Part shown: piece after piece, positions 1 to 17,873 of the stretch
Layout: the number at the start of each line of letters is the position of its first letter
Position numbering within the stretch: the stretch's first letter is position 1
Position numbers and translations under genes: made by a program
Notes under the pieces: model-generated
What the model was told of the DNA's origin: nothing
Databases searched by the model: none
What the model saw: only the letters and a program-made list of their open reading frames with translations
Assembly: GCA_013202715.1 (NCBI GenBank)
Contig: JABMRF010000023.1
Span: 2,327 to 66,326 of the forward strand
Length of the DNA: 64,000 nt
Direction: 5' to 3'
From: Candidatus Kuenenbacteria bacterium
Lineage (GTDB): Bacteria; Patescibacteriota; Patescibacteriia; UBA11705; JABHMO01

Positions 1-1140
1 GTAAATCCTGTTAGATCTGTAAAAACAACTGTGCCTTCAATTTCTTCTGCAACTAATTTACCTCGAATCATTTTCTCAGCAACGTGCTGAGGCACCATTG
101 TATAAAGAAGTTTTTCAGTTTCACCGCGCCAATGTTCAGCCTCACCCTTTGCTTCGTTCAACTGACGGGTTCTCTCAACCACTTTATCTTCCAAAGTTTC
201 TACGTAATTTCGAATTGTTGAAAGTTGCGACTCAATCCCCTCTCGATAAGCCTTTTTCGAAATAAAAGAATGAATGGTCAGCTGATAAATCTTGCGCATG
301 AAGCTGAGAGGCTGCCATTCTATTTTGTAAACAAAATAAGGCGCATTAAAAATCTGTTCTTTTTTTAATTCAAGTTTTTCATTAATTTTTAAATCTTTGG
401 TAATTAAAATTCCAATTTTAAATGTATCCAGTTTGTCGTTTGTATCTATTTCACGATATTTTCCGATAAAAAGTGGCTCTCCGTTTGCAAGCTCTGACAA
501 CAAAACAACGCGATGACCTATTTCGAGATCATCAATAAAAATTTTATTATTCTCCCATCGAATCGATTCCCCAGAAAAACGACCAACTTTTTCCAATAAA
601 CGCTCCAAATTATATTCAAAAAGAGGCTCTTCCACTTTTGCATACGGTAAATGCCAAATCTTCGGAACGCCGGCCAAAATTCCTTTTATAAATGAATCGC
701 TAGCAAAATCATCAACAGGATTAACATTATTTTTAAATTTAATTTTTATATAACAGTGATCCTTACCCGGTTTGCAGACAATCAAATCCTTGGTGCGATT
801 AAAAAACTCGTTATATTTTCCAACTTGTTTGTAAACTTCGATCGGACCGAAAATCACACTACCAAATACTTTTTGCAAATATTTAAATGCACCCCAGGAC
901 TCCAGTTCCTGAGCTGACAGGCCCATTTTGTACGGCGCTTCCGGATCTTTTAGAAGTTCTATCGCACGTTGAATAATTTGAGCATAAACTTCCAAGGGAA
1001 TCCAGTTATGCTCATCTTTCAAATACTCAACCGAATAAGGTAAATCTTCCAACAACAAAGCATCGCTACCGACAATTTGTTGCACATAGCGAGCGATAAT
1101 TGTTACATTTCGACAACAGACGTTGTTTTCTTGGGGCATA
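1..1140 (-). CDS. Class III adenylate/guanylate cyclase with a ~290-aa N-terminal domain of unknown type (partial; C-terminus lies outside the window)
   Basis: Minus-strand translation from ATG at 1138-1140 is open to the window edge (the stop lies off-window, so the ORF is absent from the track). It ends ...LYTMVPQHVAEKMIRGKLVAEEIEGTVVFTDLTGFT, the start of a class III nucleotidyl-cyclase catalytic domain, preceded by a coiled-coil (VETLEDKVVERTRQLNEAKGEAEHWRGE). Confidence 0.8.
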
Positions 1141-1145
1141 TAATA

Positions 1146-1210
1146 ATGCGAATATGAGGACTTATGCGAATAAAATAACCTGTAATTCGCATATTCGTGG
1201 CATTCGCATC
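1146..1210. promoter_or_regulatory. Nested operator-like palindromes (4 copies of TGCGAATA/TATTCGCA half-sites) in the divergent cyclase / 1338 promoter region
   Basis: atgcgaatatg ... tatgcgaata ... attcgcatattcg ... cattcgcatc. Two direct plus two inverted copies form nested inverted repeats with a ~12-bp spacer. Confidence 0.4.
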
Positions 1211-1337
1211 AATCTAGTTCACTTCAATCTTACCCAATTTTCGTGATTTAGTCAAAAGCTTACTTGACTATCTCAAAATAATAAACTAAACTCAAACTGT
1301 TCATGAATCGGTCGTTTCACAGCAAAAGGAGGTTGAG

Positions 1338-2402
1338 ATGAACAAAGTCTTTGATGCAAAAAAACTTCTTGTGGATGTTTTCAATCCACTAAAAACCGAC
1401 GTTGTCGCGTTTTTGATTGATCTACCGCATCAAACGTGCGCGGACAATGAAGATTGGCAAGACAGAAGAAAAATGGCTCTTGAGTGGCATCGAGCTATGA
1501 GAGAGCTGGCGCTGGATCGCGGGTTTACAGTTATTCCACCGGTCTATTTTCCAGCAACCGGCATAAACAGTGGACCGTTGCCAGACGAAATCGTTCAAAT
1601 CCTAAGGGGTTGTACACTGGGAATTGCCATGACTGAATTTTCCGCATCCGGTCCGCTTGCAAACCTTTGCAAAGAAGATGAGATTCTCCGTGTGGCTTCC
1701 ATGCCCGGTGTATTGCGCCGAATGGAACGCTCTGCGCTTGGTGCGGATTACAGCATAGTCCAGGATCGGTGCCGACTGCTCGGCAAAATCATGCAGGACG
1801 CGGTCAGTTGCCGAGTAAAATTTTCCAGTTCCAGCAATCACGAGTGTACTTTTGATCTACGTTTCCGCGATGCGCACGAAGACAACGGCCTTTTGCACTT
1901 CGGAAAAAGTGGCATCATCAACCTTCCTTCCGGCGAAGTTTACAAGACTCCGTATGAAGGAGAAAATTCTGATGAAGTTTCTGAAACCAACGGTTATCTA
2001 CCGGTGACATTCAACGGTGAAACGGTTATCTTCGAAGTTCGTGAAAACAAAATTGTTGACGTCACCGGCCACATGGACGGCGTCAGACATTTCCTGGCCT
2101 TCTTCGAGGCTGACCCTGCTCGCAGAAACATTGCTGAATGTGCCTTTGGTGTCAACGACGACGCCATCGTCACCGGCAATGTGCTCGAAGATGAAAAAGC
2201 CGGCTTCCATTGGGCGTACGGCCTCAGCACCCATCTGGGCGGAACTGTAGGACCAGATGCTTTCAATTCACCTGAAACTCAGGTTCACGAAGATTACGTT
2301 TACGCCAAAGAAAGTCCGATCCAGGTTACGAGTGCCGTACTTATCGGCAAGTCCGGCGCAGAAGTAGTTATCATAGAGGATGGCGAGTACGTCATTTTCT
2401 AG
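1338..2402 (+). CDS. Putative M29-family aminopeptidase (aminopeptidase T/S-like)
   Basis: 354-aa ORF with a strong SD (aaaggaggttgagATG). The C-terminal block AECAFGVNDDAIVTGNVLEDEKAGFHWAYGLSTHLGG resembles the M29 'aiGtNp...DEK.G..H.A.G' region. Recalled from memory, not searched. Confidence 0.4.
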   Translation: MNKVFDAKKLLVDVFNPLKTDVVAFLIDLPHQTCADNEDWQDRRKMALEWHRAMRELALDRGFTVIPPVYFPATGINSGPLPDEIVQILRGCTLGIAMTEFSASGPLANLCKEDEILRVASMPGVLRRMERSALGADYSIVQDRCRLLGKIMQDAVSCRVKFSSSSNHECTFDLRFRDAHEDNGLLHFGKSGIINLPSGEVYKTPYEGENSDEVSETNGYLPVTFNGETVIFEVRENKIVDVTGHMDGVRHFLAFFEADPARRNIAECAFGVNDDAIVTGNVLEDEKAGFHWAYGLSTHLGGTVGPDAFNSPETQVHEDYVYAKESPIQVTSAVLIGKSGAEVVIIEDGEYVIF

Positions 2403-2410
2403 AAAAAATA

Positions 2411-2436
2411 ACCACCGAAACAGTTCGGTGGTTTTT
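2411..2436 (+). terminator. Rho-independent terminator after 1338..2402
   Basis: accaccgaaacagttcggtgg hairpin followed by ttttt. Confidence 0.6.
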
Positions 2437-2479
2437 AAATTAAAAATGCCCAAACAACGTTATGTCTGGGCTTTTTTCA

Positions 2480-2872
2480 TTAATATTGAGCAGGTGGGAA
2501 CGACCGACGAGCTTCAGAGGTTTCCTCACCCTTGGGCTTTGGCTTGGGCAAGAGCGCCTCCTGCTTTTCGCCGGCTCTGTCAGAGTACACATCGCACTCC
2601 TCGAAGAGACTGCAGTCGAGGTAGTATACCGCCTCATCTCCAGCATCATTTTTGACTTTCACTTCAGAATAGGCAAAGAAGTTCTTGTCTACCGAAACGA
2701 TCTTTTCAGCTGAATCGTCAGTCTCCTGAATGGCGCTCAGAGCATCAGCTCGAGAAAACCAACGATTTGCCATTACTGTTGGACCAACGAATATAACACA
2801 ACTTCCGATGCATAGAATTGCCATCACGATCATCATCTCAGCCAAAGTAAAACCGGCTTCTCCCCTTCGCAT
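2480..2872 (-). CDS. Prepilin-type (type IV pilin/pseudopilin-like) protein
   Basis: N-terminus MRRGEAGFTLAEMMIVMAILCIG is a class III signal peptide with G|FTLxE and a hydrophobic helix. C-terminus ...RRSFPPAQY. Confidence 0.7.
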   Translation of the reverse strand: MRRGEAGFTLAEMMIVMAILCIGSCVIFVGPTVMANRWFSRADALSAIQETDDSAEKIVSVDKNFFAYSEVKVKNDAGDEAVYYLDCSLFEECDVYSDRAGEKQEALLPKPKPKGEETSEARRSFPPAQY

Positions 2873-2915
2873 CTCTTCCTCCTTGTGCGCGTTAAAACGA
2901 AAACACTAAACCACG

Positions 2916-3230
2916 TTACCAATTGTCGCTACTGCCCATCGGATCACTGAATGGATCCAGTGGATTATCAAGCTTTAGCGGATCCTTGATCGGATTCAGA
3001 GGATCTTGGAACATTCCCCAGCCACCATTGTCGTTATTTGGAGTCTGAGGTTGACTATATTCGGACGTGACTGCATTGTTTTTTGGAACCAACTGAACTT
3101 CTCCAGCTGCTATTTTGAAAACAAAAATAATGAACGCCCAGAGCAAAAACAAAACAAAAAGGGCCAAAAAAACATTCCAACTTGTCAGCCATCGCTTCCA
3201 GTCTTTTTTCATTTTTTCCTCCCAATTCAA
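2916..3230 (-). CDS. Small membrane protein (hypothetical)
   Basis: 104 aa with a single TM (LALFVLFLLWAFIIFVFKI) and a Pro/Asp-rich C-terminus. Confidence 0.4.
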   Translation of the reverse strand: MNWEEKMKKDWKRWLTSWNVFLALFVLFLLWAFIIFVFKIAAGEVQLVPKNNAVTSEYSQPQTPNNDNGGWGMFQDPLNPIKDPLKLDNPLDPFSDPMGSSDNW

Positions 3231-3301
3231 AGAACTATCGATTAGACTAATTTAGCAAATAAAAAACAGGCTGTCAAGTGAAGCCTGATTTAAATTAAAT
3301 T

Positions 3302-4075
3302 TCACCCCACTTCAGTGGGCTACGCACGTTATTAAATACCACGAACAGCGATTAACCACGCGCCGGGTATCGTATCCGGTTAAAACCGGGCAAAATTTAT
3401 TTTATTTTTTCTACCTTTTCCATATCTGCCACAAACGCCTCCTCTGTTTCTAAATCAATATCCAGTGCAATCGTATTAAGAATCAAATTATCAATATATT
3501 CCAATCCATACCTCTTAACCAATTCTTGATAACTTGAAAATCCGTATTGATACAACTTTAACAAATTTTTTACTAAACCATGTTTGTACGGGTTTCCCAA
3601 TATATAACCCAAGACATTAAAAAATGATTTTTCTGTTAAAATTTGTTTTGCCCATCTTTCATTCCACATTCCTCTTCTTTCAAATCCTTGCTTTCGATTT
3701 AACAAAAACGTACTTCCTCCATTTACAATTTGTAAAAATTTTGGAACATCACGCCAATGAGAACTTTTAATTAATATATGATAATGATTAGATAAAATCA
3801 CATACCCATAAATTTTTATACCGAATTTCTTTTGAGCTTTTCTAATTTGCAACTTAATTATCTGTTTTGCGTAATCCTCAACAAAAAACTTGTAGGCTCC
3901 AATAGTCCTACAAGTTATAAAATAAATATTTCCCGTATAATACACGTACCCCATATAGACTAATTTTTATTTACCCCACTTCAGTGGGATACGCACGCCA
4001 CGCACGTTCTTAAATACCACGAACAGCGATTAACCACGCGCCGGGTATCGTATCCGGTTAAAACTGGGCAAAATT
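3302..4075 (-). mobile_element. IS200/IS605-like (RAYT-type) element: HUH transposase flanked by two ~95-bp structured direct repeats
   Basis: Near-identical copies of accccacttcagtggg(c/a)tacgcacg...ttaaataccacgaacagcgattaaccacgcgccgggtatcgtatccggttaaaac(c/t)gggcaaaattta lie at 3302-3395 and 3968-4075, bracketing the tnpA-like ORF. Confidence 0.7.
3397..3954 (-). CDS. tnpA: IS200-like / REP-associated tyrosine transposase (HUH Y1 transposase)
   Basis: HUH motif in YVILSNHYHILIKS, C-terminal Tyr-containing region, ~185 aa, consistent with IS200 TnpA/RAYT. Confidence 0.75.
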   Translation of the reverse strand: MGYVYYTGNIYFITCRTIGAYKFFVEDYAKQIIKLQIRKAQKKFGIKIYGYVILSNHYHILIKSSHWRDVPKFLQIVNGGSTFLLNRKQGFERRGMWNERWAKQILTEKSFFNVLGYILGNPYKHGLVKNLLKLYQYGFSSYQELVKRYGLEYIDNLILNTIALDIDLETEEAFVADMEKVEKIK

Positions 4076-4824
4076 TACTCTAAAAACACCAGCCCAGCCA
4101 TAATCGCAATACCCAAAATCAACATTAATAATTGATATAGAGAATTACACCACTTACATTCCTTGTGAAGCTCGGGAATCAAATCAGATCCGGCAATATA
4201 GACAAATCCACCACCGGCGATTGCTAATAAAACCAATTCAAGTCCAGGAACTGAATTTGAAATTAATAAAGTAATCACCGCGCCCAGGATTGCCAAGGCT
4301 GCTGAGAGAAAATTAAAAAGTAATGCTTTCGCTTTTGAAAATCCGGCGTAAAGCAAAACGCCGAAGTCGCCAATCTCCTGCGGGACTTCGTGAAGGATTA
4401 CAGCCACAGTTGTCGCAATTCCAACAGGAAGACTAACCATAAAAGCGGCCGCAATAATTACGCCGTCCAGAAAATTATGAAATCCATCACCAACCAAATT
4501 TGTAATGGCGAGCGGTTTAAGCTTGTGCTCATGGCTATGATCAACGTGATGGCAGTGATGCCAGTGCACAAACTTTTCTATTATAAAAAAGATAACTATG
4601 CCAAGCAGAAAATATAATCCAATTTGATATGAAAAACCGTGTTCCTCAGTTATTTTCGGAATAATGTGCAAAAACACATCGCCAAGTAGCGCACCGACAG
4701 AAAAACTTACAAAGTATAATAAAAAATGTTCAAGTTTATTCTTTTTCACAACCAAAACCAAGGCTCCGACAAAGGAGATCAGACTAACAATGCAAACACT
4801 TGTAATTGTATATAACCAAATCAT
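4075..4824 (-). CDS. ZIP-family metal (zinc) transporter
   Basis: Multi-TM protein with a His-rich loop (HWHHCHHVDHSHEH) and ZIP signature HEVPQEIGDF. Confidence 0.85.
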   Translation of the reverse strand: MIWLYTITSVCIVSLISFVGALVLVVKKNKLEHFLLYFVSFSVGALLGDVFLHIIPKITEEHGFSYQIGLYFLLGIVIFFIIEKFVHWHHCHHVDHSHEHKLKPLAITNLVGDGFHNFLDGVIIAAAFMVSLPVGIATTVAVILHEVPQEIGDFGVLLYAGFSKAKALLFNFLSAALAILGAVITLLISNSVPGLELVLLAIAGGGFVYIAGSDLIPELHKECKWCNSLYQLLMLILGIAIMAGLVFLE

Positions 4825-4826
4825 AT

Positions 4827-5942
4827 TTAACTTTTTTTCTTTTTAACTTTAACTAAAAAGTGAGCAGCAATAACCGTCGCAATTGGCACTGCTAATATAA
4901 GCCCAATACTACCGGTCAAAGTTCGCACGATCTCTGTGGCAATAACCTCATTATTTAAAACCTGAGATAAACTTACGGAAGAATCAGACCTTGTACTAAA
5001 TAATAGCAACAATGGAAGTGATGCGCCAGCGTAGGCAAGAAACAGAGTATTGGTCATCGAACTGATATGATCCACGCCAACCTTGATCCCCCGCTTAAAA
5101 AGCTCGTAATGAGTGAGGTGATGACTGGCCAACTTAATTTGCTCAATCGTAGAAATCTGACTGATAACAACGTCATCCAAAACACCCAAAGTACCAATTA
5201 TTATTCCAGCTAGCAATAAGCCTTGAAAATTAATCGCAATTCCGCCAGCTCCAACCAAAAACATAGCATCATCCTGCGCTAAACCGGACAAGGCGGTTAG
5301 CTTTGTAAATATTATTGATAATATTCCGGTTATTACTAAACTTATCGCAATGCTCACAACCGCGATATGGGCTTTACGTTTGATTCCCCAAGTAATATAC
5401 ACAATTGCGCCCAAAATCGCAACTGACCCAATAATTGAAACCAAAAGCGGACTGTGCCCGGCCATAATCAAAGGAATTATAAACCACATTATTATTAAAA
5501 ATGTCACAACTAAGCTGATCAACGCTTTGACGCCCTTTCCTTTTCCAACAACGATAATCAAAACCGCAAAAAGCAAAGCCAAAAAATAAAGCCATCCGCG
5601 CCGAACATGATCTGTAACATAATACACCTCTTCTCCGTCTACATTAGTGGAGGCAGTTAGAACGACTTTGTCTCCTTTTTTAGCTGTAACGCTTTTGATG
5701 AGATCAAGGTCATTGATTCCCTCGTAAATAACCTCTTGATCTTCCCATCTCCCCTCTAATCCTATTAGCTTTAAGTTTTGTTGAACAAATTCTGAGCCAT
5801 CCTCACGAGTAACAATATTCTCGTCCATAATTTCAATAACTTTAGCTTCAAAAAGCTGATCTTGGACACTTACTCCCTGCGCAAACACAAAACTTGGCAG
5901 GATTAAACTTACCAAAAATATTAGAATGAATAGTTTTTTCAT
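4827..5942 (-). CDS. Polytopic membrane protein with signal peptide, YibE/F-like
   Basis: Signal peptide, a soluble N-terminal region, then ~8 TM helices. Resemblance to the YibE/F family is recalled, not verified. Confidence 0.45.
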   Translation of the reverse strand: MKKLFILIFLVSLILPSFVFAQGVSVQDQLFEAKVIEIMDENIVTREDGSEFVQQNLKLIGLEGRWEDQEVIYEGINDLDLIKSVTAKKGDKVVLTASTNVDGEEVYYVTDHVRRGWLYFLALLFAVLIIVVGKGKGVKALISLVVTFLIIMWFIIPLIMAGHSPLLVSIIGSVAILGAIVYITWGIKRKAHIAVVSIAISLVITGILSIIFTKLTALSGLAQDDAMFLVGAGGIAINFQGLLLAGIIIGTLGVLDDVVISQISTIEQIKLASHHLTHYELFKRGIKVGVDHISSMTNTLFLAYAGASLPLLLLFSTRSDSSVSLSQVLNNEVIATEIVRTLTGSIGLILAVPIATVIAAHFLVKVKKKKS

Positions 5943-6100
5943 ATGAATAAATTATAGCAAGTTGAGATAAAAAAAGCGAATTAAGCGAACTTAGTGAATT
6001 AAGTTAATTTCCTTTAGGGGAAATTTTTTAATTCCAAGCAATATTCTCTCGATTAACCTGCCTACCGCAGGCAGGCTCGAGATCTGCGAGGAGGAACAAA

Positions 6101-6874: not shown

Positions 6875-6881
6875 ATCACAA

Positions 6882-6911
6882 TCCCCCAATCACATCGTTG
6901 GGGGATTTTTT
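6882..6911 (+). terminator. Rho-independent terminator
   Basis: tcccccaatcacatcgttggggga + tttttt. Confidence 0.65.
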
Positions 6912-7039
6912 ATTTATCCCGCAAATGGCGGGATTGACAAACAAAAGAAATGAAGCTAAAGTATCCATGAAAGCAAATTTAATAAAAGCCCTTCTTCGCT
7001 CTATACTTTGTCAGAGCTACGAAGGACGCAGGAGGCAAC

Positions 7040-7234
7040 ATGAACCCAGTAATATCGATTTTGCTTATCATTGCTTTTTATTACTTTGCTTCACTATCCT
7101 CAAGACTTCTTGGCGAAAGTCAGGCAGATCCAGCTTCCATAGTGCTTAAACAAAAGGCCCACTCAGCACTTACAGTCGCAATTATTATATTATTGATATT
7201 GGTCTGGCAGGTGATCGTAATTGTGACCTCGTGA
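7040..7234 (+). CDS. Small 2-TM membrane protein (hypothetical)
   Basis: 64 aa, SD aggagg 8 nt upstream, followed by terminator ttccccaactacattgttggggaa+T8 at 7268-7299. Confidence 0.4.
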   Translation: MNPVISILLIIAFYYFASLSSRLLGESQADPASIVLKQKAHSALTVAIIILLILVWQVIVIVTS

Positions 7235-7367
7235 CTTGCCTTATTCGTGACAATTTGAACAACACAATTCCCCAACTACATTGTTGGGGAATTTTTTTTG
7301 ACATTTCGCAAAGAATAAACTAACCTCTAATTAGTAGCCCTTTTCAATAAACACCGGAGGTAAACAC

Positions 7368-9519: not shown

Positions 9520-9593
9520 TCGGGGATCGTCTAATGGTAGGACACCTGGTTTTGGTCCAGGCAATCTAGGTTCGATTCCTAGTCCCCGAGCCA
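9520..9593 (+). tRNA. tRNA-Gln (anticodon TTG)
   Basis: Manual fold gives acceptor TCGGGGA/TCCCCGA, D-arm GTCT/GGAC, anticodon stem CCTGG/CCAGG with loop TTTTGGT (anticodon TTG), T-arm CTAGG-TTCGATT-CCTAG and an encoded CCA. Terminator hairpin at 9667-9699. Confidence 0.85.
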
Positions 9594-9839
9594 TGAACCA
9601 CTCGCTTCTTTTAAGGAAGGGGGTGGTTTTTGTTTCTAAAGAAGCTCGGGTTCATGGCAAGCAAAAAAAAACGATGAACTTATGTTCGTCGTTTTTTTTT
9701 ATTCTACAATCCTTGTCGACCATGCTCGTCATAATTTTTTGTTTTTTGCTATGAGACAATGTTTGCTTTTAAAAATCTTGACGAGTGGGGATAACATTTT
9801 TCTGGAAGAGAACGAAATAAATTGGCACAATGGTAATAT

Positions 9840-10382
9840 ATGTATAATGGCAGAGAACGAAAATTAAACCGTGCTAAATCTATTGATTATTCATTGCCGG
9901 GATTTTATTATTTAACGTTTTTAACAAAAAATCGGCTTGAATGGTTTGGAGAAATTAAAAACAACAAAATGGTTTTGAATGAATGGGGAAAAATTGTTTG
10001 CCGTCAATTATTATGGCTGGAACAACAATATGATCATGTGCGTTTGGATGAATGGATCATAATGCCAAATCATGTACATGTGATCGTCGAAATCCTTCAC
10101 GCATCGAACCCCACGCCTGTAAGGAACGGTCGCGACCGTTCCTTACAGGCGTGGGGAGACCGTGACCGTCGAGTACAGGAAAAAAAGAGAAAACCCATCC
10201 CCGAATTAATCGGTGCATTAAAAACCACATCATCCAAATGGATACATCGGAATGGTTTGTTTGAATTCAAATGGCATAAATCATATCATGACCGTGTCCT
10301 GCGCAGTCAATCCGAATTGGAACACGCTCGCTGGTATATTCGCACCAATCCTGGTCGCTGGCATCGCGACCGCAACAATTAA
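9840..10382 (+). CDS. tnpA: IS200-like / REP-associated tyrosine transposase (HUH), adjacent to tRNA-Gln
   Basis: HUH motif IIMPNHVHVIVEI and C-terminal WHKSYHDRVLR...WYIRTNPGRW, as in RAYT/IS200 TnpA. Contains an in-frame palindromic insert (see repeat 10112..10160). Confidence 0.8.
   Translation: MYNGRERKLNRAKSIDYSLPGFYYLTFLTKNRLEWFGEIKNNKMVLNEWGKIVCRQLLWLEQQYDHVRLDEWIIMPNHVHVIVEILHASNPTPVRNGRDRSLQAWGDRDRRVQEKKRKPIPELIGALKTTSSKWIHRNGLFEFKWHKSYHDRVLRSQSELEHARWYIRTNPGRWHRDRNN
10112..10160. repeat. REP-like 44-bp perfect palindrome embedded in-frame in the transposase gene
   Basis: ccacgcctgtaaggaacggtcgcgaccgttccttacaggcgtgg. A related copy, aggaacggtcacgaccgtcccct, lies at 30776-30808. Confidence 0.7.
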
Positions 10383-10453
10383 TCCCGCCGTTAGCGGGAT
10401 TAAAAAAGAAAGCTCTTTCCAAAAAGCTTTCTTCACTTCATTATTTTCAACTA

Positions 10454-11836
10454 TTACTTTATAATCACAAAATCTTTCTTAATTCCCATTTCTACCATTA
10501 TGAGATCATCCCAGGCATATCTGTCTTTACCTTCCAAAACAAGATCCAGATTACGTTCAAACCAGGGCTGAAGATTTTCGTAGCCGTGATTTGAAATAAT
10601 ATAACGCACAGAGCTTTGTAATTTGTAATAGTCGTCTTTCGGAACTAGCTTTTCACCGGTAGAAATTTTGTCGTCAACTAAAATCTGATGTTTTTCCAAT
10701 AATGCCTGCAGTTGATTTAATTGAGAGTTTTTCGAAATTTCAAACATTCCCCACGGGCCGAATAAACTTAGAATCAAAATCACGCAAATTGAAATTGGAA
10801 TAATTTTAATGGAAGCTTTTTTCCAAATCGCAAACAATAGGCCGATTCCCAAAAGCCAAATACCCATTAAGACAACCAAGTATCTGCGCTCAGTCACACC
10901 ATAATCATTGATCCTGATCTTAATCGCCCAGAACAAAATTCCGGTCAGAGGAACAATGGCAATAAACAGCGCGCGATAAAATATCCGTAGCCATTTACTT
11001 TTATTTTTGTACGCCCAAATAATTAAACAAGTAATAATTCCGAAAATCGAAAAACCAATAATTAACGAAGCGACAATCCCCTTTGGCCATTCACCTGTAA
11101 ATAAAATTTTTATTGAATACACATAAACGATCAAAAAGTACAAACAAACGATTGGGACTAACAAATACTTGCCAATTGCCTTGATCCAAACCGGAGGCTC
11201 TGACTTCTCTGCCAAAGATCTTATTTTCTTCGGAACAAATAACAAGAAAAAATGCACAGCAGCAAATACTACTAAAATAATCCAGATTGTGAAAAATATA
11301 TTTTCGGAGAGATTGAAAACAAACAACTTTGAGACGGCCAGCAAAGCAATTGACAGAGCGCCAAACACAAAGCCGGAAATGGCGCCCGTGATCACAAACA
11401 TAATAGCCAGATTTTTTACAAAATGCCAAAAATACTCGTCATTATTTTTGGTTAAATAGCCGATAAATAAAACACTTAAGCAAAAACAGCCGAATAGTAT
11501 CATGTAACGCGCAACATCGCGAGTCAATTCATCATTGTTCACACCGGGTAAAATAAAATAATACAATCCCAAGAAAACAATTCCTGTAGCGCGAACCAAC
11601 CACTTTTGCCACAACTTCCAATTTTGCTGTTCCAAAAATAAAGCTATTGCTAAAAATAACAGTATTCCCAAAAGGCAAAGCAAAAACAGCTTCATCATAA
11701 CCGGATATTCATATTCAAATAAGACCCAGCAGACACCGAGAATTGTTCCGAAAAGTGAACTTAGGCTGACCAGTGGAAACCGGAAAACTGTGCTGATTAA
11801 ATTTTGTAGATTGAAGTTTTGTTTCAGGGTAGTCAT
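10454..11836 (-). CDS. Large polytopic membrane protein (hypothetical)
   Basis: 460 aa with more than 10 predicted TM helices and a soluble C-terminal ~90 aa. Confidence 0.55.
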   Translation of the reverse strand: MTTLKQNFNLQNLISTVFRFPLVSLSSLFGTILGVCWVLFEYEYPVMMKLFLLCLLGILLFLAIALFLEQQNWKLWQKWLVRATGIVFLGLYYFILPGVNNDELTRDVARYMILFGCFCLSVLFIGYLTKNNDEYFWHFVKNLAIMFVITGAISGFVFGALSIALLAVSKLFVFNLSENIFFTIWIILVVFAAVHFFLLFVPKKIRSLAEKSEPPVWIKAIGKYLLVPIVCLYFLIVYVYSIKILFTGEWPKGIVASLIIGFSIFGIITCLIIWAYKNKSKWLRIFYRALFIAIVPLTGILFWAIKIRINDYGVTERRYLVVLMGIWLLGIGLLFAIWKKASIKIIPISICVILILSLFGPWGMFEISKNSQLNQLQALLEKHQILVDDKISTGEKLVPKDDYYKLQSSVRYIISNHGYENLQPWFERNLDLVLEGKDRYAWDDLIMVEMGIKKDFVIIK

Positions 11837-11946
11837 ATGCTTTTGTAAATAATAAAACTATATCAATACCATATCAATTTTGCCAAGGATAAGCAAGTTA
11901 CCACTAATTCGTATTACTTGCTAAGATACTAAATTTAGAGCAGCTC

Positions 11947-11975
11947 TTGACAAATAATAAAATTTATACTATAAT
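11947..11975 (+). promoter_or_regulatory. Consensus sigma70 promoter TTGACA-17-TATAAT for 12094..12621
   Basis: ttgaca 11947-11952, exact 17-nt spacer, tataat 11970-11975. A hairpin (ggtcagttattcacggtgaatggctgac) sits at the predicted TSS. Confidence 0.6.
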
Positions 11976-12093
11976 ACCTGGTCAGTTATTCACGGTGAAT
12001 GGCTGACAAACCGAGCTTACTTTTCTACTGCAAATCCTTTGTGGAAAACAAAGAGAGCTTGCTGATTGAAAAGTAAAAAATGGAGGTTGTGTT

Positions 12094-12621
12094 ATGGAAG
12101 GTGTCATTGCTATCATTGTAATTGGAGTTATTGTTGTTGCCGTATCTATTTTTGCAATCCGTTTCAAAAGAAGTCTTAACAGCATGATGTATGATTCACG
12201 CGTGGTAATTGAAAACGCATTTGCCGCGGCAAAGGACAAACTGAACGAAAAGACATTTGTTATCGCCATTCACACGACAAAGTCGGCCAGAACCGACATT
12301 GAAAACATTGTCATTCAAGAACTCAAGAAACTGGGTGCCAAGATTCTACTGCTGACAAACGCGGAATGGAAAACCCTGCGAAGTGGTGACCTCGCAATTC
12401 TCAAAAACGATAAGGCCGAATTGGCAATTATCGGTTGCGTGAGGCAAAACTTCTACGACAAAGACTTTTTCAGTTTTCACAAGAATGAAGCAGAAAAACC
12501 CGTCCTTGATTTCAAAGTCGTAAATAAGGATGGTGAAATCATCCACCTGGATGTCGTTGAATCCTTTTTCGAACAGCTGACCGCCAGAGCTGCGGCCGCT
12601 TCCATCGCCAACGCATTGTAA
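12094..12621 (+). CDS. Membrane-anchored hypothetical protein
   Basis: SD ggagg, an N-terminal TM helix (VIAIIVIGVIVVAVSIFAI), 175 aa. A terminator hairpin follows at ~12635-12665. Confidence 0.5.
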   Translation: MEGVIAIIVIGVIVVAVSIFAIRFKRSLNSMMYDSRVVIENAFAAAKDKLNEKTFVIAIHTTKSARTDIENIVIQELKKLGAKILLLTNAEWKTLRSGDLAILKNDKAELAIIGCVRQNFYDKDFFSFHKNEAEKPVLDFKVVNKDGEIIHLDVVESFFEQLTARAAAASIANAL

Positions 12622-12713
12622 ATAAAACCTTCCGCCCCGGGACAATACTCGCGGCGGATTTTTTTATTTAAAAACAAAAAGCCCCTGAACTATTCAGGGA
12701 CTTTTCATTATTC

Positions 12714-12902
12714 TTACTTAGCAGCAAAAAGATTGCAATGGCCTTCCGGCGGACAAGCGCCAAACGCTTCAAGAGCTGCTTCAAATGTTTTGTCTTCCGG
12801 AACGCAGGCAGTCTTGCCACCTTGCTCCTGAAACAATTTACAGTTCTTACATTGAGTTGCTTCATCCTTCCAACTGTCAACAAAATTTACATCATCAGAC
12901 AT
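12714..12902 (-). CDS. Small Cys-rich protein, possibly HiPIP-like iron-sulfur protein
   Basis: 62 aa. C17-x2-C20-x11-C32-...-C57 with CKNCKLFQ...GKTACVP...EGHCNLFAAK resembles the HiPIP pattern CxxCxF...C...GWCxxW. Recalled similarity only. Confidence 0.35.
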   Translation of the reverse strand: MSDDVNFVDSWKDEATQCKNCKLFQEQGGKTACVPEDKTFEAALEAFGACPPEGHCNLFAAK

Positions 12903-12974
12903 ATTGATTTAGCGAGAGAGACAATGCAAGCAAGAAAATTCTATTATCATGCCAACTTGCCAACTCGCAGTTAC

Positions 12975-13190
12975 TTAATCTTTGGAAATTTTAGTTAAAA
13001 AATGATCAATGGCTTCGGCCTTGATAAGATTCAAACCCGTACCATCTTTTCTTTTAACAACGATCAGCTTGTCTCCTTTATCAATCCCCAACTCTCTTCG
13101 AAGATCAATCGGGATTGCAAGCTGACCCTTGTCAGTCAAAGTTACCATACCGTAAAATAATTTTTTTTTTGTACAAACACCTTTTTTCAT
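12975..13190 (-). CDS. AbrB/MazE/SpoVT-family DNA-binding protein
   Basis: VTLTDKGQLAIPIDLRRELGIDKGDKLIV is a swapped-hairpin AbrB-type motif. 71 aa. Confidence 0.65.
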   Translation of the reverse strand: MKKGVCTKKKLFYGMVTLTDKGQLAIPIDLRRELGIDKGDKLIVVKRKDGTGLNLIKAEAIDHFLTKISKD

Positions 13191-13271
13191 ATTTTTGCTT
13201 GCCCTGAACCGTCTAAGAAAGACGAAGACTGGTTTAGGGTTTATTTAAGATTTGTAAGATATTACATACTT

Positions 13272-13300
13272 ATCTTACTACACTTTTCAAAATCTGTCAA
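13272..13300 (-). promoter_or_regulatory. Near-consensus promoter (TTGACA-17-TAAGAT) for the AbrB-like / Cys-rich protein pair
   Basis: Minus strand reads ggtcTTGACAgattttgaaaagtgtagTAAGAT. It shares the extended -35 context ggtcttgaca with the promoter at 17105-17133. Confidence 0.5.
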
Positions 13301-13426
13301 GACCCTGAGCGACGATAAGGAGTCGAAGAGCAAGTGTTTTCGAGCTTTTTGTCTAAATTAACAAGAATCAATCAAAAAACCCCGCCTCGAGCACTGTCGA
13401 GAGGCGAGGTTCTTTATATTTACTAA

Positions 13427-14416
13427 TTATTCTAAAGTTTTCAACACCGCCACCCTCTGCTCGTCAGTTAAACCAAGTGACTTTAACTTGTCATCCGCCT
13501 CTGCCTTTTCAATTTCTTGTAACTCTGCATAAACTCCTGCCACAGCCATAGTTTTATCCTGCAAAACTCTACCAAGTTTTCTCAATTCAACAGGAACTTC
13601 GACTTTCTTTTTAGCTTCCGGTTTTTCATAAACATACTCGTCGCCCTTCAAAACAATGCCCGCAGCTTGATCACCGCCTCTTCTTCCCTGGATCGCGCCA
13701 AGTAGTGCCGGCAATGCTTTTTCCAATTCATTCAAAGTAGCAATTTGTTTATCAGCTTTTTTCTTAATTTCTTGGACCTTTGGATCTTCCATGTCGCTGT
13801 CTTCATCGTAACCTGCGCCTTTATCCGCTCGATTCAACGCAAAAATCATGCGCATTTTTTCGATCAATTCATCATCACCAGGAATTCCCTCCGCCAGCGC
13901 GACAAATTTATCATAAGATTTTAATCCCTTACCTTTTGGTTCTTTTTCTTTCTCAAAATTGTTTACCAAATTCAGGGCTGCAACGTGCAGACCCGCCATC
14001 TTCGCTACAAAATCTATTTCTTCTAAACTTAATTCAAAATGTTTTGGCAAAAGCTCTCTCAGCATTCTCTCACTTTCTCCTTCATGCCCAACATACTGCC
14101 GTTTTTCCGCATCTTTTGGATGAACTTGCTGCCCTTCCGGCGAAGCCTTTCCAAGATCATGCGTTTTTCCGGCTAATATTAAAAGATTACGTTTTTTTTC
14201 CGGCAACCCAGCCACAAATTCATCTGACTCCAAGTTGCTGACCAGTTTTTTGGTATGATCATCCAAAGTTAATGAATGATAATCACTACGCTGGTCAAGT
14301 CCTTTCATGGCAGCTACTTCCGGAATTGCCGCTTCTAATTGTTCATAACTGGCATCTGCGCCAAATTTTTTGTCTTCAGGAGTTGGTGTGCCTCCCCCCA
14401 TCATTTTTTCTGACAT
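13427..14416 (-). CDS. HD-domain metal-dependent phosphohydrolase with N-terminal MSEKMMGGG-TPTPE motif
   Basis: Ordered H...HD...H...H...D motifs (YHSLTLDDH, KTHDLGK, VGHEGES, AGLH, LNRAD) resemble the CCA-enzyme-type HD domain. N-terminus MSEKMMGGGTPTPE. Confidence 0.5.
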   Translation of the reverse strand: MSEKMMGGGTPTPEDKKFGADASYEQLEAAIPEVAAMKGLDQRSDYHSLTLDDHTKKLVSNLESDEFVAGLPEKKRNLLILAGKTHDLGKASPEGQQVHPKDAEKRQYVGHEGESERMLRELLPKHFELSLEEIDFVAKMAGLHVAALNLVNNFEKEKEPKGKGLKSYDKFVALAEGIPGDDELIEKMRMIFALNRADKGAGYDEDSDMEDPKVQEIKKKADKQIATLNELEKALPALLGAIQGRRGGDQAAGIVLKGDEYVYEKPEAKKKVEVPVELRKLGRVLQDKTMAVAGVYAELQEIEKAEADDKLKSLGLTDEQRVAVLKTLE

Positions 14417-14430
14417 AAAATTATAATTAT

Positions 14431-15840
14431 TTATTTTTTAAAGTCTTCAAATACTTTTTTGAAGTCTTCTTCATTTAATAAAGAAGTTCTGGAAGCTGCA
14501 ATCAAAGAGCCGCCAGCCACTAACACTGTTGGATCTTTGGTAATAATATCATCTGCATCAACTTCACCTGAAGCAACTTTGTCATTTAGGCCAAAAAACG
14601 CTTCTCTATCCGCTTGCCCTTCCCAACCGTCAACCATTTTTTGTTCATCTTCAGTTTTTTCCGGCTTGGCAATAATCGCATCTCTTTTTTGTTTTTCCGC
14701 TTTTATTAAAGCTAGACAAATTGCGCTCAAATCCATAACATTGGCCATGTCAGGTGTAATCCCAATATCATAATTATCGCCAAATGCTCTGTCTTCACCC
14801 GCGTAAACCGCAACAACTGTGTCTGGGCTAACTCGGTTGTAAGCCATATTTGTAAAGACAAGCGGTTTTTTGCTGGAGCCAATCACAACATTCACCTCAA
14901 TATCATTTCCTTCTTTGTCTTTAATTATCATTTTCCCTTTTTCCGCCTTTTCAAACTCCTCTAAAAATTCTTCAAATGCTGCTTTTAAATTTTCCCGACC
15001 CTGACCAACCACTTCTTGCAATTCCGGAGACAACTCAAGTTTTGTAACATCAGTCGCTATATCAAAATTTGAATCTTTAATTTTTTCAGCATTGGCCGCA
15101 TTAATCAATTCAAAAATCATTTCATTACGCATGTTTTCATATTTTGCCTGAATTTCTTGAAGTTTTTTTACTCCCTCTGCGTTCAATCTCCCGTCTTCAC
15201 CTTTCATTTCCGGATTACCAAAAACTTCCTTACCAAGCTCTGCCCGGCCTCTGTCGCTAAGCAAACTTTTGATCGCGGAAGCCGTTCCCGGTAAACTGGA
15301 GGCATATTGTTCAGGATCAAGTCTGCTCAATCCATAATCTTCAATATTGGTAACTTTTGCCAGATCCTCAGCAATCACCGGCATTTCACCATTTTCAATT
15401 AAACTGCGGGTCAAATATGATGAAGCAATAGCGTCTAAATCACTCTCAAAATGAGTTTCAACTTTGGTAATGCTTTTTTCTTTAATTAACTGCAAAACCG
15501 CATCAGGATAATCAAAAACCATTTGAGTTGAACACTTTCTTGAATCAACTCCTTTGGCGCTAAAAAAAGCATCTATAGAATGGTGATCAATTGCACCGGC
15601 CAAGATACTTTCTTTATAAATATTATCAATGTCTTCCTGACTAAATTCTGTTTTATCTTTGTGTTTTTTCAAAAATTCTGTAAACACACCTGTGTCAGTA
15701 ATCAAAGACCCTTGCGCTAATTTTTCTTCAAGGTTAATTATAGCGCCCTTTGGCAAAGACGGTAGACACCCTTCATATTTTATAGGTGTAAATTCTTGTT
15801 TTTCCGGAGTTGGTCCGGCTCCCATCATTTTTTCTGACAT
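14431..15840 (-). CDS. Hypothetical protein, possible DHH/DHHA1-like phosphoesterase, with N-terminal MSEKMMGAGPTPE motif
   Basis: 469 aa. Its first 20 nt (ATGTCAGAAAAAATGATGGG) are identical to the 13427..14416 gene. Contains AIDHHSID, ESDLDAIASS and C-terminal VLVAGGSLIAAS (cf. DHHA1 GGGHxxAAG), but motif order is atypical. Confidence 0.45.
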   Translation of the reverse strand: MSEKMMGAGPTPEKQEFTPIKYEGCLPSLPKGAIINLEEKLAQGSLITDTGVFTEFLKKHKDKTEFSQEDIDNIYKESILAGAIDHHSIDAFFSAKGVDSRKCSTQMVFDYPDAVLQLIKEKSITKVETHFESDLDAIASSYLTRSLIENGEMPVIAEDLAKVTNIEDYGLSRLDPEQYASSLPGTASAIKSLLSDRGRAELGKEVFGNPEMKGEDGRLNAEGVKKLQEIQAKYENMRNEMIFELINAANAEKIKDSNFDIATDVTKLELSPELQEVVGQGRENLKAAFEEFLEEFEKAEKGKMIIKDKEGNDIEVNVVIGSSKKPLVFTNMAYNRVSPDTVVAVYAGEDRAFGDNYDIGITPDMANVMDLSAICLALIKAEKQKRDAIIAKPEKTEDEQKMVDGWEGQADREAFFGLNDKVASGEVDADDIITKDPTVLVAGGSLIAASRTSLLNEEDFKKVFEDFKK

Positions 15841-15878
15841 AAAATTTGTGTTATTTTTTGTAATTTATTACTTATATT

Positions 15879-16367
15879 TTATTCTTTCATCGCTAACATT
15901 TTAGTAAAAGCTCTTTTCATAGCTTTTTTAATTTCACCAGTACTAGTTAATCTAAACCCCCATCCATCATGACCGGTTGAATAACCTATTGTTTCACCAA
16001 AAAAACTGACTTCTCCTTCTTCATGATCATCATAATCTTCTGAAGACTTTGTTACGCTTCTGTTCAACAAAGAACTTGCATCAACTTTTACATTCATCTT
16101 CCGAGCTACCAAACTAAAAATACTTTCCAACTCATCCTCCAAGTGAAAACCCATACCAAAAGAACTACGCATTTCTTCAAATGCCTCCAATTCTTTATCT
16201 GCCCAATCAGCTATTTGGTCAATGTTTTTCACTGAAAACTCGACTTTATTGAATTCATCTTCATCTAAACATAAACCTAAATCATCATAGCTTTCTTCAG
16301 CTACTTCTTTTTCATGTTCATTCTCTACCTCCGGGCTTGGATCATTACCCATTGTAGGATCTTTCAT
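15879..16367 (-). CDS. Acidic hypothetical protein with N-terminal MKDPTMGNDPSPE motif
   Basis: 162 aa, pI-acidic, and shares the MG..[ST]PE N-terminal motif. 15-bp gap to the upstream gene, consistent with an operon. Confidence 0.45.
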   Translation of the reverse strand: MKDPTMGNDPSPEVENEHEKEVAEESYDDLGLCLDEDEFNKVEFSVKNIDQIADWADKELEAFEEMRSSFGMGFHLEDELESIFSLVARKMNVKVDASSLLNRSVTKSSEDYDDHEEGEVSFFGETIGYSTGHDGWGFRLTSTGEIKKAMKRAFTKMLAMKE

Positions 16368-16382
16368 AAATTTTAATTATTT

Positions 16383-16844
16383 TTATTCGTTTAATACTTT
16401 TTCCGCTTCTTGATTTTCATCTTCTAATCCTTTGATTCGTTTTTTTCTTTCTTCAATTCTACTTCGAATTAGCTCCATTGCTTTTTCCTTGCTTATAAAA
16501 GATACTTCTTTCTCGTCAACATCATAATTGGCTTCAACCTCTCTATATAGCCACAATTCATCAGATAACTTTTTTAATTCATCTACGTGATTATTCCCGC
16601 CGTCCCCAACGTCCAAAGAGGGAATATTGTCACAATCAAATTCAAAAAAATTGTCTAACTCATGAATTGCATCACTATCCTCTGCTGGAAATCGCCCCAT
16701 GTCGTCACTTGAAGGATATTTTCCATTGTTTCTTTTTAACATCTCATGAAAATCACGCTCCAATCCTCTGGCGCGACCAATTAGCTCTTTATTTTGTTCT
16801 TCCTCATTTGAAGAAGGTGTTTGGTTCCAATTTTCTACTGACAT
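16383..16844 (-). CDS. Acidic coiled-coil hypothetical protein, first gene of the four-gene operon
   Basis: 153 aa, D/E-rich. Lies immediately downstream of a long leader driven by the consensus promoter at 17105-17133. Confidence 0.45.
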   Translation of the reverse strand: MSVENWNQTPSSNEEEQNKELIGRARGLERDFHEMLKRNNGKYPSSDDMGRFPAEDSDAIHELDNFFEFDCDNIPSLDVGDGGNNHVDELKKLSDELWLYREVEANYDVDEKEVSFISKEKAMELIRSRIEERKKRIKGLEDENQEAEKVLNE

Positions 16845-16937
16845 AGATTTGTTTGTTAATTGTTAAGTATACCCCTATTCTACCATCTATTTAAAATAAA
16901 TGAAAAGCCCCTCTTTTTGTTGGACTCTTCACTCTTT

Positions 16938-17099
16938 GGAAGCTATGAATAACATAGTTTCTACTGCAATTCCCAAATTTTTACTGCAAATTGGTAAAAG
17001 CTTGTCAGCGTAATTTTATCATTATGCTTCCTCGCTTTTAACAATTTTCGTTTTAAAATTTGAAAATTTCGTTACGAAGCTATGTTATTCATATCTTCC
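16938..17099 (-). promoter_or_regulatory. 5' leader inverted repeat (20 bp, 1 mismatch, arms ~120 bp apart)
   Basis: ggaagctatgaataacatag (16938-16957) and its reverse complement within cgaagctatgttattcatatcttcc (17075-17099). The downstream arm sits at the predicted TSS. Confidence 0.45.
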
Positions 17100-17104
17100 T
17101 ATAC

Positions 17105-17133
17105 ATTATAGCAAACTTTTTAGATTTTGTCAA
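17105..17133 (-). promoter_or_regulatory. Perfect consensus sigma70 promoter (TTGACA-17-TATAAT) driving the 16844->13427 operon
   Basis: Minus strand reads ggtcTTGACAaaatctaaaaagtttgcTATAAT. The TSS is ~250 nt upstream of the first start codon, so the leader is long. Confidence 0.6.
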
Positions 17134-17288
17134 GACCTTGAGCCTGCCTGACAGCAGTCAGGCTTGTCGAAAGGTCAAGCTAATTTGATAAATTTTGACC
17201 TCTGGATAACCTCCTTTTATTTGAGATAGAATTATGATAAGATGTAGTTGTGTGATTTACTTGCAACTTTACAAAAAGGGAGGTCAAT

Positions 17289-17873
17289 ATGGATACTGAT
17301 TTCATTGATGGAATATCTGAGGAATTTGCAACAGCAATATACACAGAAATGAAGTTATCGTTGTTTGACGATATCGAACCAAAAACTGCTATTTGGCTTT
17401 TACAGCAATTCACGCGAAAAACCTATTCGCTGGACGAAACAATGATGATGGAAGGAGAGGTCGGCAATGAGCTCTTCATCCTTCTTTCCGGTGAGGCTGC
17501 TATCAAGGTGGGCGGAGACACCGTGCACAAGTTCAAAAAAGGAGCTATCATCGGTGAAAGTGGCTTAGCCAAAAAAACCGTTCGGCGTACCGCGACCGTC
17601 TTGGCTGGAAGCAGTAAAATTCAAGTCCTGGTACTTACACGAGAAAAACTTGATGACATCAAAATCGCAATGCCACTTATCTACGCAGAAATCTGCAGGA
17701 ACATTGCGGACATGACCATTGAAAAGCTGGGCTTTGCAAATGACACAATCCAGCGAAAAATTGAAGAAACAACCGTAGCGAAAAGAAAAACCGTAGAAGC
17801 AACAAGGGAACTTGAACACAGAAATTGGTTGAGTCGACTGGCTGCCACACTTGGCTTCAGTCAAGGACAATAG
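17289..17873 (+). CDS. Cyclic nucleotide-binding (CRP/FNR-like) protein
   Basis: cNMP-binding fold GEVGNELFILLSGEAAIKVGG...KKGAIIGESGL...RRTATVLA, plus a short C-terminal region that could be a degenerate HTH. SD agggagg. Terminator at 17888-17919. Confidence 0.65.
   Translation: MDTDFIDGISEEFATAIYTEMKLSLFDDIEPKTAIWLLQQFTRKTYSLDETMMMEGEVGNELFILLSGEAAIKVGGDTVHKFKKGAIIGESGLAKKTVRRTATVLAGSSKIQVLVLTREKLDDIKIAMPLIYAEICRNIADMTIEKLGFANDTIQRKIEETTVAKRKTVEATRELEHRNWLSRLAATLGFSQGQ

Follow-up and report, generated by a model that had tools for sequence, protein, structure and literature searches.

We analysed a 64,000-nt stretch of DNA from Candidatus Kuenenbacteria (contig JABMRF010000023.1; hereafter the window), and our analyses indicate that it probably holds two genuine cyclic AMP (cAMP) signalling genes that are physically and transcriptionally separate, rather than a four-part regulon. 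These genes encode a class III nucleotidyl cyclase of the adenylate cyclase type with a large N-terminal sensor, and a 194-aa cyclic-nucleotide-binding protein. An earlier note on this DNA had grouped the two with promoter palindromes and an HD-domain hydrolase into one signalling set; from that set the cyclase and the nucleotide-binding protein hold, whereas the DNA-binding regulator and the phosphodiesterase are not supported. Nor do the genes form a unit, since the cyclase and the binding protein lie 16 kb apart and are separately transcribed, and since the cyclase is widespread while the binding protein was found in three 90% clusters only.

Bacteria of the Candidate Phyla Radiation (CPR, or Patescibacteria) have stripped-down genomes with few recognisable signalling proteins. 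A reduced genome, as had been supposed for this DNA, is consistent with the NCBI listing of proteins identical to the 194-aa protein and to the 329-aa HD protein under Candidatus Kuenenbacteria (Patescibacteria/Parcubacteria). The window has a G+C content of ~39% and a steadily falling GC skew, and its genes beyond the cyclase, binding-protein and HD set are ordinary housekeeping and cell-envelope genes. The two signalling genes and the parts of the cyclase are as follows.

1..1139, minus strand: sensor adenylate cyclase, the 5' 379 codons of a 537-aa protein (translation); it runs off the window start, and the full gene is L001:1852-3465, minus strand
615..1139, minus strand: N-terminal pocket domain, residues 1-175, modelled with an H-NOX/V4R-type fold (AlphaFold2 model and Foldseek)
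303..614, minus strand: all-beta middle domain, residues ~176-279, with the motif G-x-I-[YF]-x-A-P-[YF]-F (AlphaFold2 sub-model)
36..302, minus strand: signalling helix of ~70 residues and cyclase transducer element, residues 280-368 (model and Pfam HNOBA)
1..35, minus strand: start of the catalytic domain, residues GTVVFTDLTGF, including metal-binding Asp375 (translation and clade alignment)
17289..17873, plus strand: stand-alone cyclic-nucleotide-binding protein, 194 aa (Pfam cNMP_binding), with the domain at about residues 23-140 and a 54-residue C-terminal tail without a helix-turn-helix (HTH)

A class III cyclase with ATP-type residues

The window covers just 11 residues of the catalytic domain (GTVVFTDLTGF), and the remainder was read from contig L001, which was reached via a look-up of the neighbouring 354-aa protein, shows 1 mismatch against the window in 1400 nt and carries the whole cyclase gene. 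The earlier note was right to place a class III cyclase here, at 1..1140, but translation of the open reading frame (ORF) puts its ATG start codon at 1139 on the minus strand. In the full protein, Pfam Guanylate_cyc (PF00211) matched residues 370-535 (E=1.2e-24, 87 bits against a cut-off of 21.9), and a PDB sequence search returned Synechocystis Cya2 (2w01), a bacteriophytochrome-adenylate cyclase fusion (6fht) and Pseudomonas CyaB (3r5g) as the closest solved catalytic domains.

Class III enzymes follow well-defined rules, with two metal-binding Asp residues, a Lys/Asp pair that selects adenine (ATP) or a Glu/Cys or Glu/Gly pair that selects GTP, and an Asn and an Arg that act in the transition state. 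Alignment of the cyclase with five orthologues (six sequences, 28-48% identity) revealed that D375, K415, D419, D478, N485 and R489 are invariant, with D375 set in FTDLTGF, D419 in FMGDG, and both N485 and R489 in VNLASR. In the PDB alignment K415 stands opposite a Lys in 6fht and opposite the Glu of the guanylate cyclase Cya2. The specificity residues that the earlier note had sought in the part outside the window are thus Lys/Asp (K415, D478), of the adenylate cyclase type, and none of the six residues is missing from the full sequence, a loss that would have spoken against a cyclase. The protein looks like a catalytically complete class III enzyme with an ATP-type Lys415/Asp478 pair, and because all six catalytic and specificity residues are kept, it should be an active homodimeric adenylate cyclase.

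Comparison with described sensor class III cyclases (Cya2, CyaB and the mycobacterial Rv1625c type) revealed both shared and distinct features. As in those enzymes, catalytic homology is clear (E=1e-24 to 1e-25, with all six residues), the catalytic domain follows a helical linker and a transducer element, and a homodimer is expected. Cya2, however, has Glu/Gly and makes cGMP, whereas the present cyclase has Lys/Asp. The described inputs of bacterial class III cyclases are GAF, PAS, CHASE, HAMP, BLUF and six-transmembrane (6TM) domains; the module of the present cyclase, with a pocket domain of H-NOX/V4R-type fold in the model and an orphan beta-domain, falls outside these and belongs to no Pfam family.

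A probable input module with a modelled H-NOX/V4R-type fold

The N-terminal ~290 residues of the cyclase have no Pfam or NCBIfam match, and a word-indexed homologue search with the N-terminal 300 residues came back empty. An exhaustive HMMER search revealed 275 representative relatives. Those that match cyclase residues 1-172 at their own N-termini reach 1466 aa, and the match continues through cyclase residue 290 in about 40 of the 150 relatives listed. Domains downstream of the module, as determined for 47 relatives, included HisKA/HATPase, PAS, GAF, GGDEF, HD-GYP, receiver and cyclase domains, and because the module stands at the N-terminus of histidine kinases, GGDEF/HD-GYP proteins and cyclases alike, as would be expected of an input domain, we take it to be one. 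It carries no name in family databases, yet hundreds of histidine kinases and cyclic-di-GMP enzymes from other bacteria begin with it, and finding the ligand would establish it as a new input domain of bacteria. One candidate identity, PF24820 ('Diguanylate cyclase-like sensor domain'), was rejected, as it maps to the downstream PAS regions of relatives and not to the N-terminal module.

To place the module by structure, we used an AlphaFold2 model of the N-terminus built on the family alignment (predicted local distance difference test, pLDDT, of 90). Foldseek searches of residues 1-175 against the PDB returned more than 30 H-NOX chains at a probability of ~1.0 (target template modelling (TM) scores of 0.53-0.65, E=2.5e-3 to 5e-2), the best being H-NOX 2o09 (target TM 0.65, probability 1.0, E=2.5e-3), with 1u55 also matched, so that the modelled domain would have the H-NOX fold. 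The same searches aligned it with full-length subunits of soluble guanylate cyclase (sGC; beta chain 9p2r_B, alpha chains and 6jt0_A) and with the N-domain of the AraC-type regulator VirS (8rcw), and more weakly with the V4R sensors PoxR and MopR. The sensor that the earlier note had called unrecognised is therefore without a Pfam or NCBIfam match, as it had said, but of a fold that can be recognised as H-NOX/V4R-like.

Relatives of the sensor connect to the V4R side of this fold class as well, with V4R (PF02830; E=1e-5 to 0.1) and Arabinose_bd (PF12625; E=2e-3 to 0.3) matches in several of them; none of these reaches the Pfam gathering threshold, and the cyclase itself has neither. V4R, TRAPPC3 and the AraC N-terminal domain PF12625 (VirS 8rcw, PoxR 5frw) share the fold class, the members of which bind hydrophobic ligands, namely heme in H-NOX, phenols in PoxR and palmitate in TRAPPC3, and V4R domains carry a Cys-bound Zn site (PMC10933270). 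The signature of the sensor family comprises V-S/C-C9-R10-N, Y18, W46, R58, D65, G153, P159 and W162. Many non-cyclase members add Cys148 and Cys174 to Cys9, a set reminiscent of the Cys-bound Zn site of V4R (PMC10933270), whereas the cyclase clade retains Cys9 only and differs further in that its output is a cyclase rather than a sigma-54 activator or an AraC-type HTH.

The rest of the N-terminal half is less readily placed. When modelled separately, the middle beta-domain reached a pLDDT of 88, and Foldseek found no credible PDB relative for it (best E=0.2, probability 0.11). Residues 280-348 form one long helix in the AlphaFold2 model, and Pfam HNOBA matched this part of the protein through its C-terminal helix only (profile positions 175-216, cyclase residues 315-357, E=1.6e-5). 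Our literature search found nothing specific on cAMP signalling in Patescibacteria or on an H-NOX-like cyclase sensor.

A stand-alone cyclic-nucleotide-binding protein

The 194-aa protein matched Pfam cNMP_binding (PF00027) at residues 44-124 (E=3.3e-9), and its PDB matches included PKG and PKA binding domains, the stand-alone protein 3gyd and PycTIR (8jsj). Its phosphate-binding cassette is intact (G89-E90-S-G-L-A-K-K-T-V-R99-R100-T101-A102, 17553-17600) and aligns with the G-E-x-A-L ... R-S/T-A of PKG. With E90, R100 and T101 in register with the PKG cassettes, the nucleotide-contacting Arg and Glu, the lack of which the earlier note had named as grounds against this protein, are in place.

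That note had further called the protein CRP-like, which holds for the nucleotide-binding domain and fails for the DNA-binding part. NCBIfam CRP matched it (E=3e-6) over CRP positions 14-127 only, the nucleotide-binding half; neither HTH_Crp_2 nor any other HTH family was found at E<=0.1, and the last 70 residues had no Pfam match at E<=10. Because it has no HTH and the CRP model covers the nucleotide-binding half only, the protein is, as judged from its sequence, a stand-alone receptor and not a CRP-type regulator, and the electrophoretic mobility shift assays that had been proposed for it on two promoter regions are without a rationale. It thus shares with CRP/FNR proteins a homologous binding domain with the cassette Glu and Arg-Thr/Ser, but in place of their C-terminal winged HTH it has an unrelated 54-residue tail. 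Closer in architecture is 3gyd, a structural-genomics entry of 187 aa, which is of similar size, has a single domain and matches over query residues 7-139 (E=6e-4); unlike in 3gyd, the tail here has a sequence specific to a small Kuenenbacteria group.

Downstream of the gene we observed a terminator-like hairpin with T6 at 17893-17919, and the next gene has an extended -10 element of its own at 17934-17942. That next gene (18015-19352, plus strand) encodes a DUF6938 protein that resembles UgtP (processive diacylglycerol beta-glucosyltransferase, PDB 9wde, E=3.8e-5) and MGDG synthase, and it also adjoins the binding-protein gene in a 73%-identical relative (L006). In that relative the gene directly upstream of the binding-protein gene (L006:2333-2932) is a homologue of a membrane-anchored 175-aa protein that the window encodes at 12094-12621 (plus strand), while the window has a 153-aa gene at this place, which indicates that genes near the binding gene have been rearranged locally.

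The HD protein and its operon

On the other side of the binding-protein gene lies a divergent operon that contains the HD protein.

13427..14416, minus strand: divergent HD-domain protein, 329 aa (Pfam HD sub-threshold; cas3_HD)
14431..16844, minus strand: three operon genes upstream of the HD gene, of 469, 162 and 153 aa, acidic, with no family match (Pfam, NCBIfam, PDB and defence models)
17105..17133, minus strand: sigma-70-type consensus promoter of the HD operon, TTGACA-17-TGnTATAAT, with 12/12 matches and a leader of ~255 nt

HD-superfamily enzymes include cyclic-nucleotide phosphodiesterases, and it was as a possible phosphodiesterase that the earlier note had brought in the 329-aa protein. 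This assignment is not supported. The Pfam HD match is below threshold (E=6e-4, 20.5 bits against a cut-off of 22), although some close relatives carry a precomputed PF01966 match; the best specific models are those of Cas3-type HD nucleases (NCBIfam cas3_HD, 1.8e-7; PADLOC Cas3, 6e-9); and the PDB offers one weak similarity only, to part of the Aquifex poly(A) polymerase (A-adding enzyme) entries (E ~0.08). Among phosphodiesterase-type subfamilies (HD-GYP, PgpH-type and class I phosphodiesterase) we found none to which the protein belongs, its HD character being generic only. The family is restricted to CPR bacteria, and two more distant relatives (P0166 and P0186, at L023 and L024) lie in unrelated neighbourhoods without cyclase or cyclic-nucleotide-binding genes. 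The operon is thus not supported as a cAMP part and reads as a bystander, nothing tying it to cyclic nucleotides. For annotation, the consequence is that the 194-aa protein should not be named a CRP-type regulator nor the HD protein a phosphodiesterase.

The binding-protein gene is indeed divergent from this minus-strand operon (13427-16844), which had been described as a phosphoesterase operon; its other three genes, however, match no family. Reading the 469-aa protein as a DHH-phosphoesterase was rejected, since its 'DHH' and 'DLDAIAS' strings do not follow the order of those motifs and the protein has no match among DHH models, PDB sequences or defence models. L006 keeps both the 469-aa and the 162-aa gene. 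A stretch of ~50 nt around the start codon is common to the HD gene and the 469-aa gene (14360-14440 and 15784-15864, minus strand), so that both proteins begin with MSEKMMG-G-TPE, and the 162-aa protein starts with the related MGNDPSPE; the shared start could be a duplicated start region or a common N-terminal tag. The leader of the operon contains a 24-nt inverted repeat that is 92% complementary (16938-16961 / 17076-17099) and would pair its 5' end with a site ~95 nt before the start codon, and a further palindrome lies at ~17134-17176, between the divergent promoters of the intergenic region 16845-17288.

Distribution of the cyclase and its conserved neighbour

Evaluating the cyclase across genomes, we found close orthologues (73-79% identity) in metagenome-assembled genomes (MAGs) of Falkowbacteria and other Patescibacteria, two of which are labelled 'uncultured Gammaproteobacteria' by their depositors, and distant orthologues (42-49% identity) in MAGs of Nomura-, Adler- and Saccharibacteria. 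The cyclase is thus conserved across at least four CPR classes, which is new here, and a conserved CPR sensor offers a clue to the stimuli that these epibionts respond to. An adenylate cyclase also figures in the list of single-copy core genes of oral Saccharibacteria (PMC9040727).

An all-against-all comparison of ORFs revealed only two genes common to all eight loci, the cyclase and one that converges on it from just outside the window.

L001:249-1700, plus strand: fusion of a PlsC-type acyltransferase and a HAD-IB phosphatase, 483 aa, just left of the window start and convergent with the cyclase

This protein has the PlsC-type motifs H-x4-D and FPEG and the HAD-IB motif DxDxT. In all CPR loci examined (L001, L007, L010-L013 and L015-L018; 37-68% identity) its gene converges on the cyclase, with the two 3' ends no more than ~200 nt apart and overlapping by 4-53 nt in L018, L007 and L015. 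This is the sole adjacency kept across the four CPR classes, and the upstream neighbours vary by locus. In L010, L012 and L013, YibE_F and ZIP genes run directly into the cyclase. The window has ~2.9 kb inserted between these genes and the cyclase (1338-3954), with genes for an M29-like peptidase and a pilin-like N_methyl protein, an ORF of 104 aa and an IS200/Y1 transposase gene; another Y1_Tnp-like gene is found at 9840-10382, next to the tRNA at 9520-9590.

The pairing raises the speculative idea, to which we assign a rather low probability, that cyclase and acyltransferase-HAD protein are a CPR-wide functional pair in which the H-NOX/V4R-fold pocket would sense a lipid or hydrophobic host-derived molecule and cAMP would tune membrane-lipid acylation and remodelling in bacteria unable to make fatty acids. 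Given the invariant acyltransferase pairing, the ligand could connect second-messenger signalling to lipid scavenging. The DUF6938 protein beside the cAMP receptor would be a second lipid-related neighbour of a cAMP gene, and a UgtP/MGDG-synthase-like glycosyltransferase at this place would fit the lipid theme.

Promoter and leader of the cyclase

Upstream of the cyclase start codon, sequence comparison revealed the following elements.

1227..1255, minus strand: cyclase promoter, TTGACT (1255-1250), 17 nt, TAAGAT (1232-1227) (sequence and orthologue comparison)
1140..1220, minus strand: cyclase mRNA leader of ~80 nt with 4 copies of ATGCGAAT (motif search and RNA folding)

The promoter is conserved, with TTGAC(T/A/G)-17-TAA(G/A)(A/C)T upstream of the orthologues in L010, L011, L012, L013 and L014. 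The copies of ATGCGAAT lie at 1146-1153 and 1164-1171 on the plus strand and at 1185-1192 and 1202-1209 on the minus strand, forming nested inverted repeats; of the 6 copies in the 64-kb window (3.5 expected), 4 fall within these 64 nt. Because they fall between the conserved promoter and the AUG, the repeats belong to the cyclase leader and are not regulatory DNA in common with the divergent M29-like gene, which L010 lacks. The nested palindromes that the earlier note had seen are thus real, but their site is the leader, downstream of the promoter, rather than the promoter region.

Within the leader, the repeat array ends 4-6 nt ahead of the cyclase AUG, and no Shine-Dalgarno sequence precedes this start, whereas neighbouring genes have strong ones. 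The RNA folds into a nested hairpin with its base 4 nt from the AUG (minimum free energy of -21.5 kcal/mol, z=-3.0 against shuffles). The leader in L010/L070 has an expanded array of 5+4 CGAAT/ATTCG units (-38.6 kcal/mol, z=-3.6), and among the relatives ATGCGAAT is present in L010/L070 only. The leaders in L011, L012 and L014 are short and without repeats, and that in L013 is differently structured. Rfam gave nothing above noise in this leader or in the intergenic region between the HD operon and the binding-protein gene, and of the 46 stretches that a scan of metagenomes for the leader core found, 45 were chance matches, with no further variants. An Adlerbacteria locus with a 48%-identical cyclase (L007:5830-5930) repeats a 7-mer upstream of the gene, twice directly and twice inverted (TAAGGTC / GACCTTA); these copies are unlike the repeats of the window in sequence and have a predicted fold no better than shuffles (z=+0.4).

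These repeats could act as RNA or as DNA. We lean slightly towards a translational hairpin rather than an operator array, because of the position of the repeats and the missing Shine-Dalgarno sequence. The competing explanation, a DNA operator that lies downstream of the promoter and offers a repressor at least two dimer sites, is a serious if less probable one. It would account for the reuse of one 8-mer four times in both orientations, which RNA pairing alone does not need; L010 keeps the CGAAT/ATTCG core in 9 units at a spacing of roughly 8-9 or 17-18 nt while the flanks vary; and a position of +10 to +75 fits a roadblock repressor. Against an operator, there is no candidate DNA-binding protein nearby, ATGCGAAT is not enriched elsewhere in the 64 kb, and the hairpin is thermodynamically significant in both the window and L010/L070 (z=-3.0 and -3.6) and abuts a start without a Shine-Dalgarno sequence.

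Proposed mechanism and alternative explanations

Taken together, these observations fit a model in which the class III adenylate cyclase, cytoplasmic and probably homodimeric, would bind a small, probably hydrophobic, non-heme ligand in its H-NOX/V4R-fold domain. By way of the orphan beta-domain, the coiled-coil helix of ~70 residues and the cyclase transducer element, the signal would then reach the catalytic dimer, which is predicted to make cAMP. The 194-aa protein may read this signal and act by protein-protein contact through its conserved C-terminal helix rather than by DNA binding. Expression of the cyclase would be set by its own conserved promoter and the ~80-nt leader, in which the four ATGCGAAT copies may fold into a nested hairpin that hides the start region, itself without a Shine-Dalgarno sequence, or, alternatively, serve as an operator array.

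Several points weigh against this reading of two separate cAMP genes and the proposed sensor. The activity of the cyclase and its specificity for cAMP are deduced from sequence motifs, the Arg-Thr-Ala cassette of the binding protein does not separate cAMP from cGMP, and no cAMP phosphodiesterase was identified in the region. With its three 90% clusters set against a widespread cyclase, the binding protein cannot be a general CPR effector. For the sensor, Foldseek E-values go no lower than 2e-3 to 5e-2, and its profile gave an hhalign probability of 0.3, and hence no sequence-profile similarity, against a Thermoanaerobacter H-NOX sequence. In the leader, the inner stem shows one wobble-compatible and one disruptive change between the window and L010, the single comparison that is informative, so that covariation does not support an RNA structure.

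Three other explanations were weighed, and all fare worse than two separate genes. The four-part cAMP regulon, in which a CRP-like factor would act on both the 1.15-kb palindromes and the 17.1-kb region and the HD hydrolase would degrade the cAMP that the cyclase makes, draws on a real cyclase, a real cyclic-nucleotide-binding domain, real palindromes and an HD superfamily that includes cyclic-nucleotide phosphodiesterases. We nevertheless consider it very unlikely, as just 54 residues follow the binding domain, with no HTH or other domain, and the NCBIfam CRP match is limited to the nucleotide-binding half; ATGCGAAT is missing from the intergenic region 16845-17288 even with 1 mismatch allowed; and the HD protein is nearest to Cas3 HD nuclease models and has relatives among unrelated neighbours. 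A Pycsar-type anti-phage system, with a cyclase triggered by infection and an effector activated via its cyclic-nucleotide-binding domain, would explain why PADLOC PycC models match the catalytic domain (best E=1.8e-18), why PADLOC PycTIR and Effector models match the binding protein (E=1.1e-14), and why PycTIR 8jsj is among the PDB matches of the latter. These matches are confined to generic cyclase and binding domains, however, and that of Pfam Guanylate_cyc to the catalytic domain is better (E=1.2e-24). The two genes are 16 kb apart on opposite strands with no shared operon, neither a TIR nor a transmembrane killing domain is present in the binding protein, the cyclase has a 370-residue sensor and a purine Lys/Asp pair, and, unlike mobile defence islands, it is vertically conserved across CPR classes with fixed synteny, all of which makes this the least probable of the explanations considered.

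The third, that the cyclase is a bacterial counterpart of sGC and a heme-based NO/O2 sensor, rests on the parallel domain order, on the Foldseek matches, which include many H-NOX domains as well as both sGC chains (beta and alpha) at full length, and on the HNOBA match to the helix that precedes the catalytic domain. In animal sGC (H-NOX, PAS, coiled coil, cyclase) as in the present protein, a pocket domain, a middle domain and a long coiled coil lead to a class III domain. The heme ligands, however, are lacking. No His occurs at a frequency of at least 20% in the 300-residue sensor family alignment, save at the non-equivalent position 136, and the helix that corresponds to alpha-F has no conserved His. 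The Y-x-S-x-R propionate triad is absent in both plausible registers, where the end of beta2 and the start of alpha-G read F135-K-N-N-V or P141-V-D-D-F, as placed against Tt H-NOX. Pfam HNOB (PF07700) gave no match at E<=1, and there is no sequence-level similarity of the sensor to animal sGC or bacterial H-NOX, as the hhalign result above indicates. The middle domain, moreover, is all-beta rather than PAS-like, a homodimer is expected in place of a heterodimer, and the specificity residues are Lys/Asp (ATP) and not Glu/Cys, so that we regard a heme-based sGC counterpart as highly improbable. As modelled, the relation of the sensor to H-NOX is by fold alone, and the cyclase is not a member of the H-NOX family.

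Other features of the window

Elsewhere in the window, two near-alike terminator-like hairpins at 6880-6907 (AATCCCCCAA...TTGGGGGATT) and 7266-7293 (AATTCCCCAAC...GTTGGGGAATT) flank a 64-aa ORF (7040-7234), which sits between a GCS2-like gene and a NUDIX gene.

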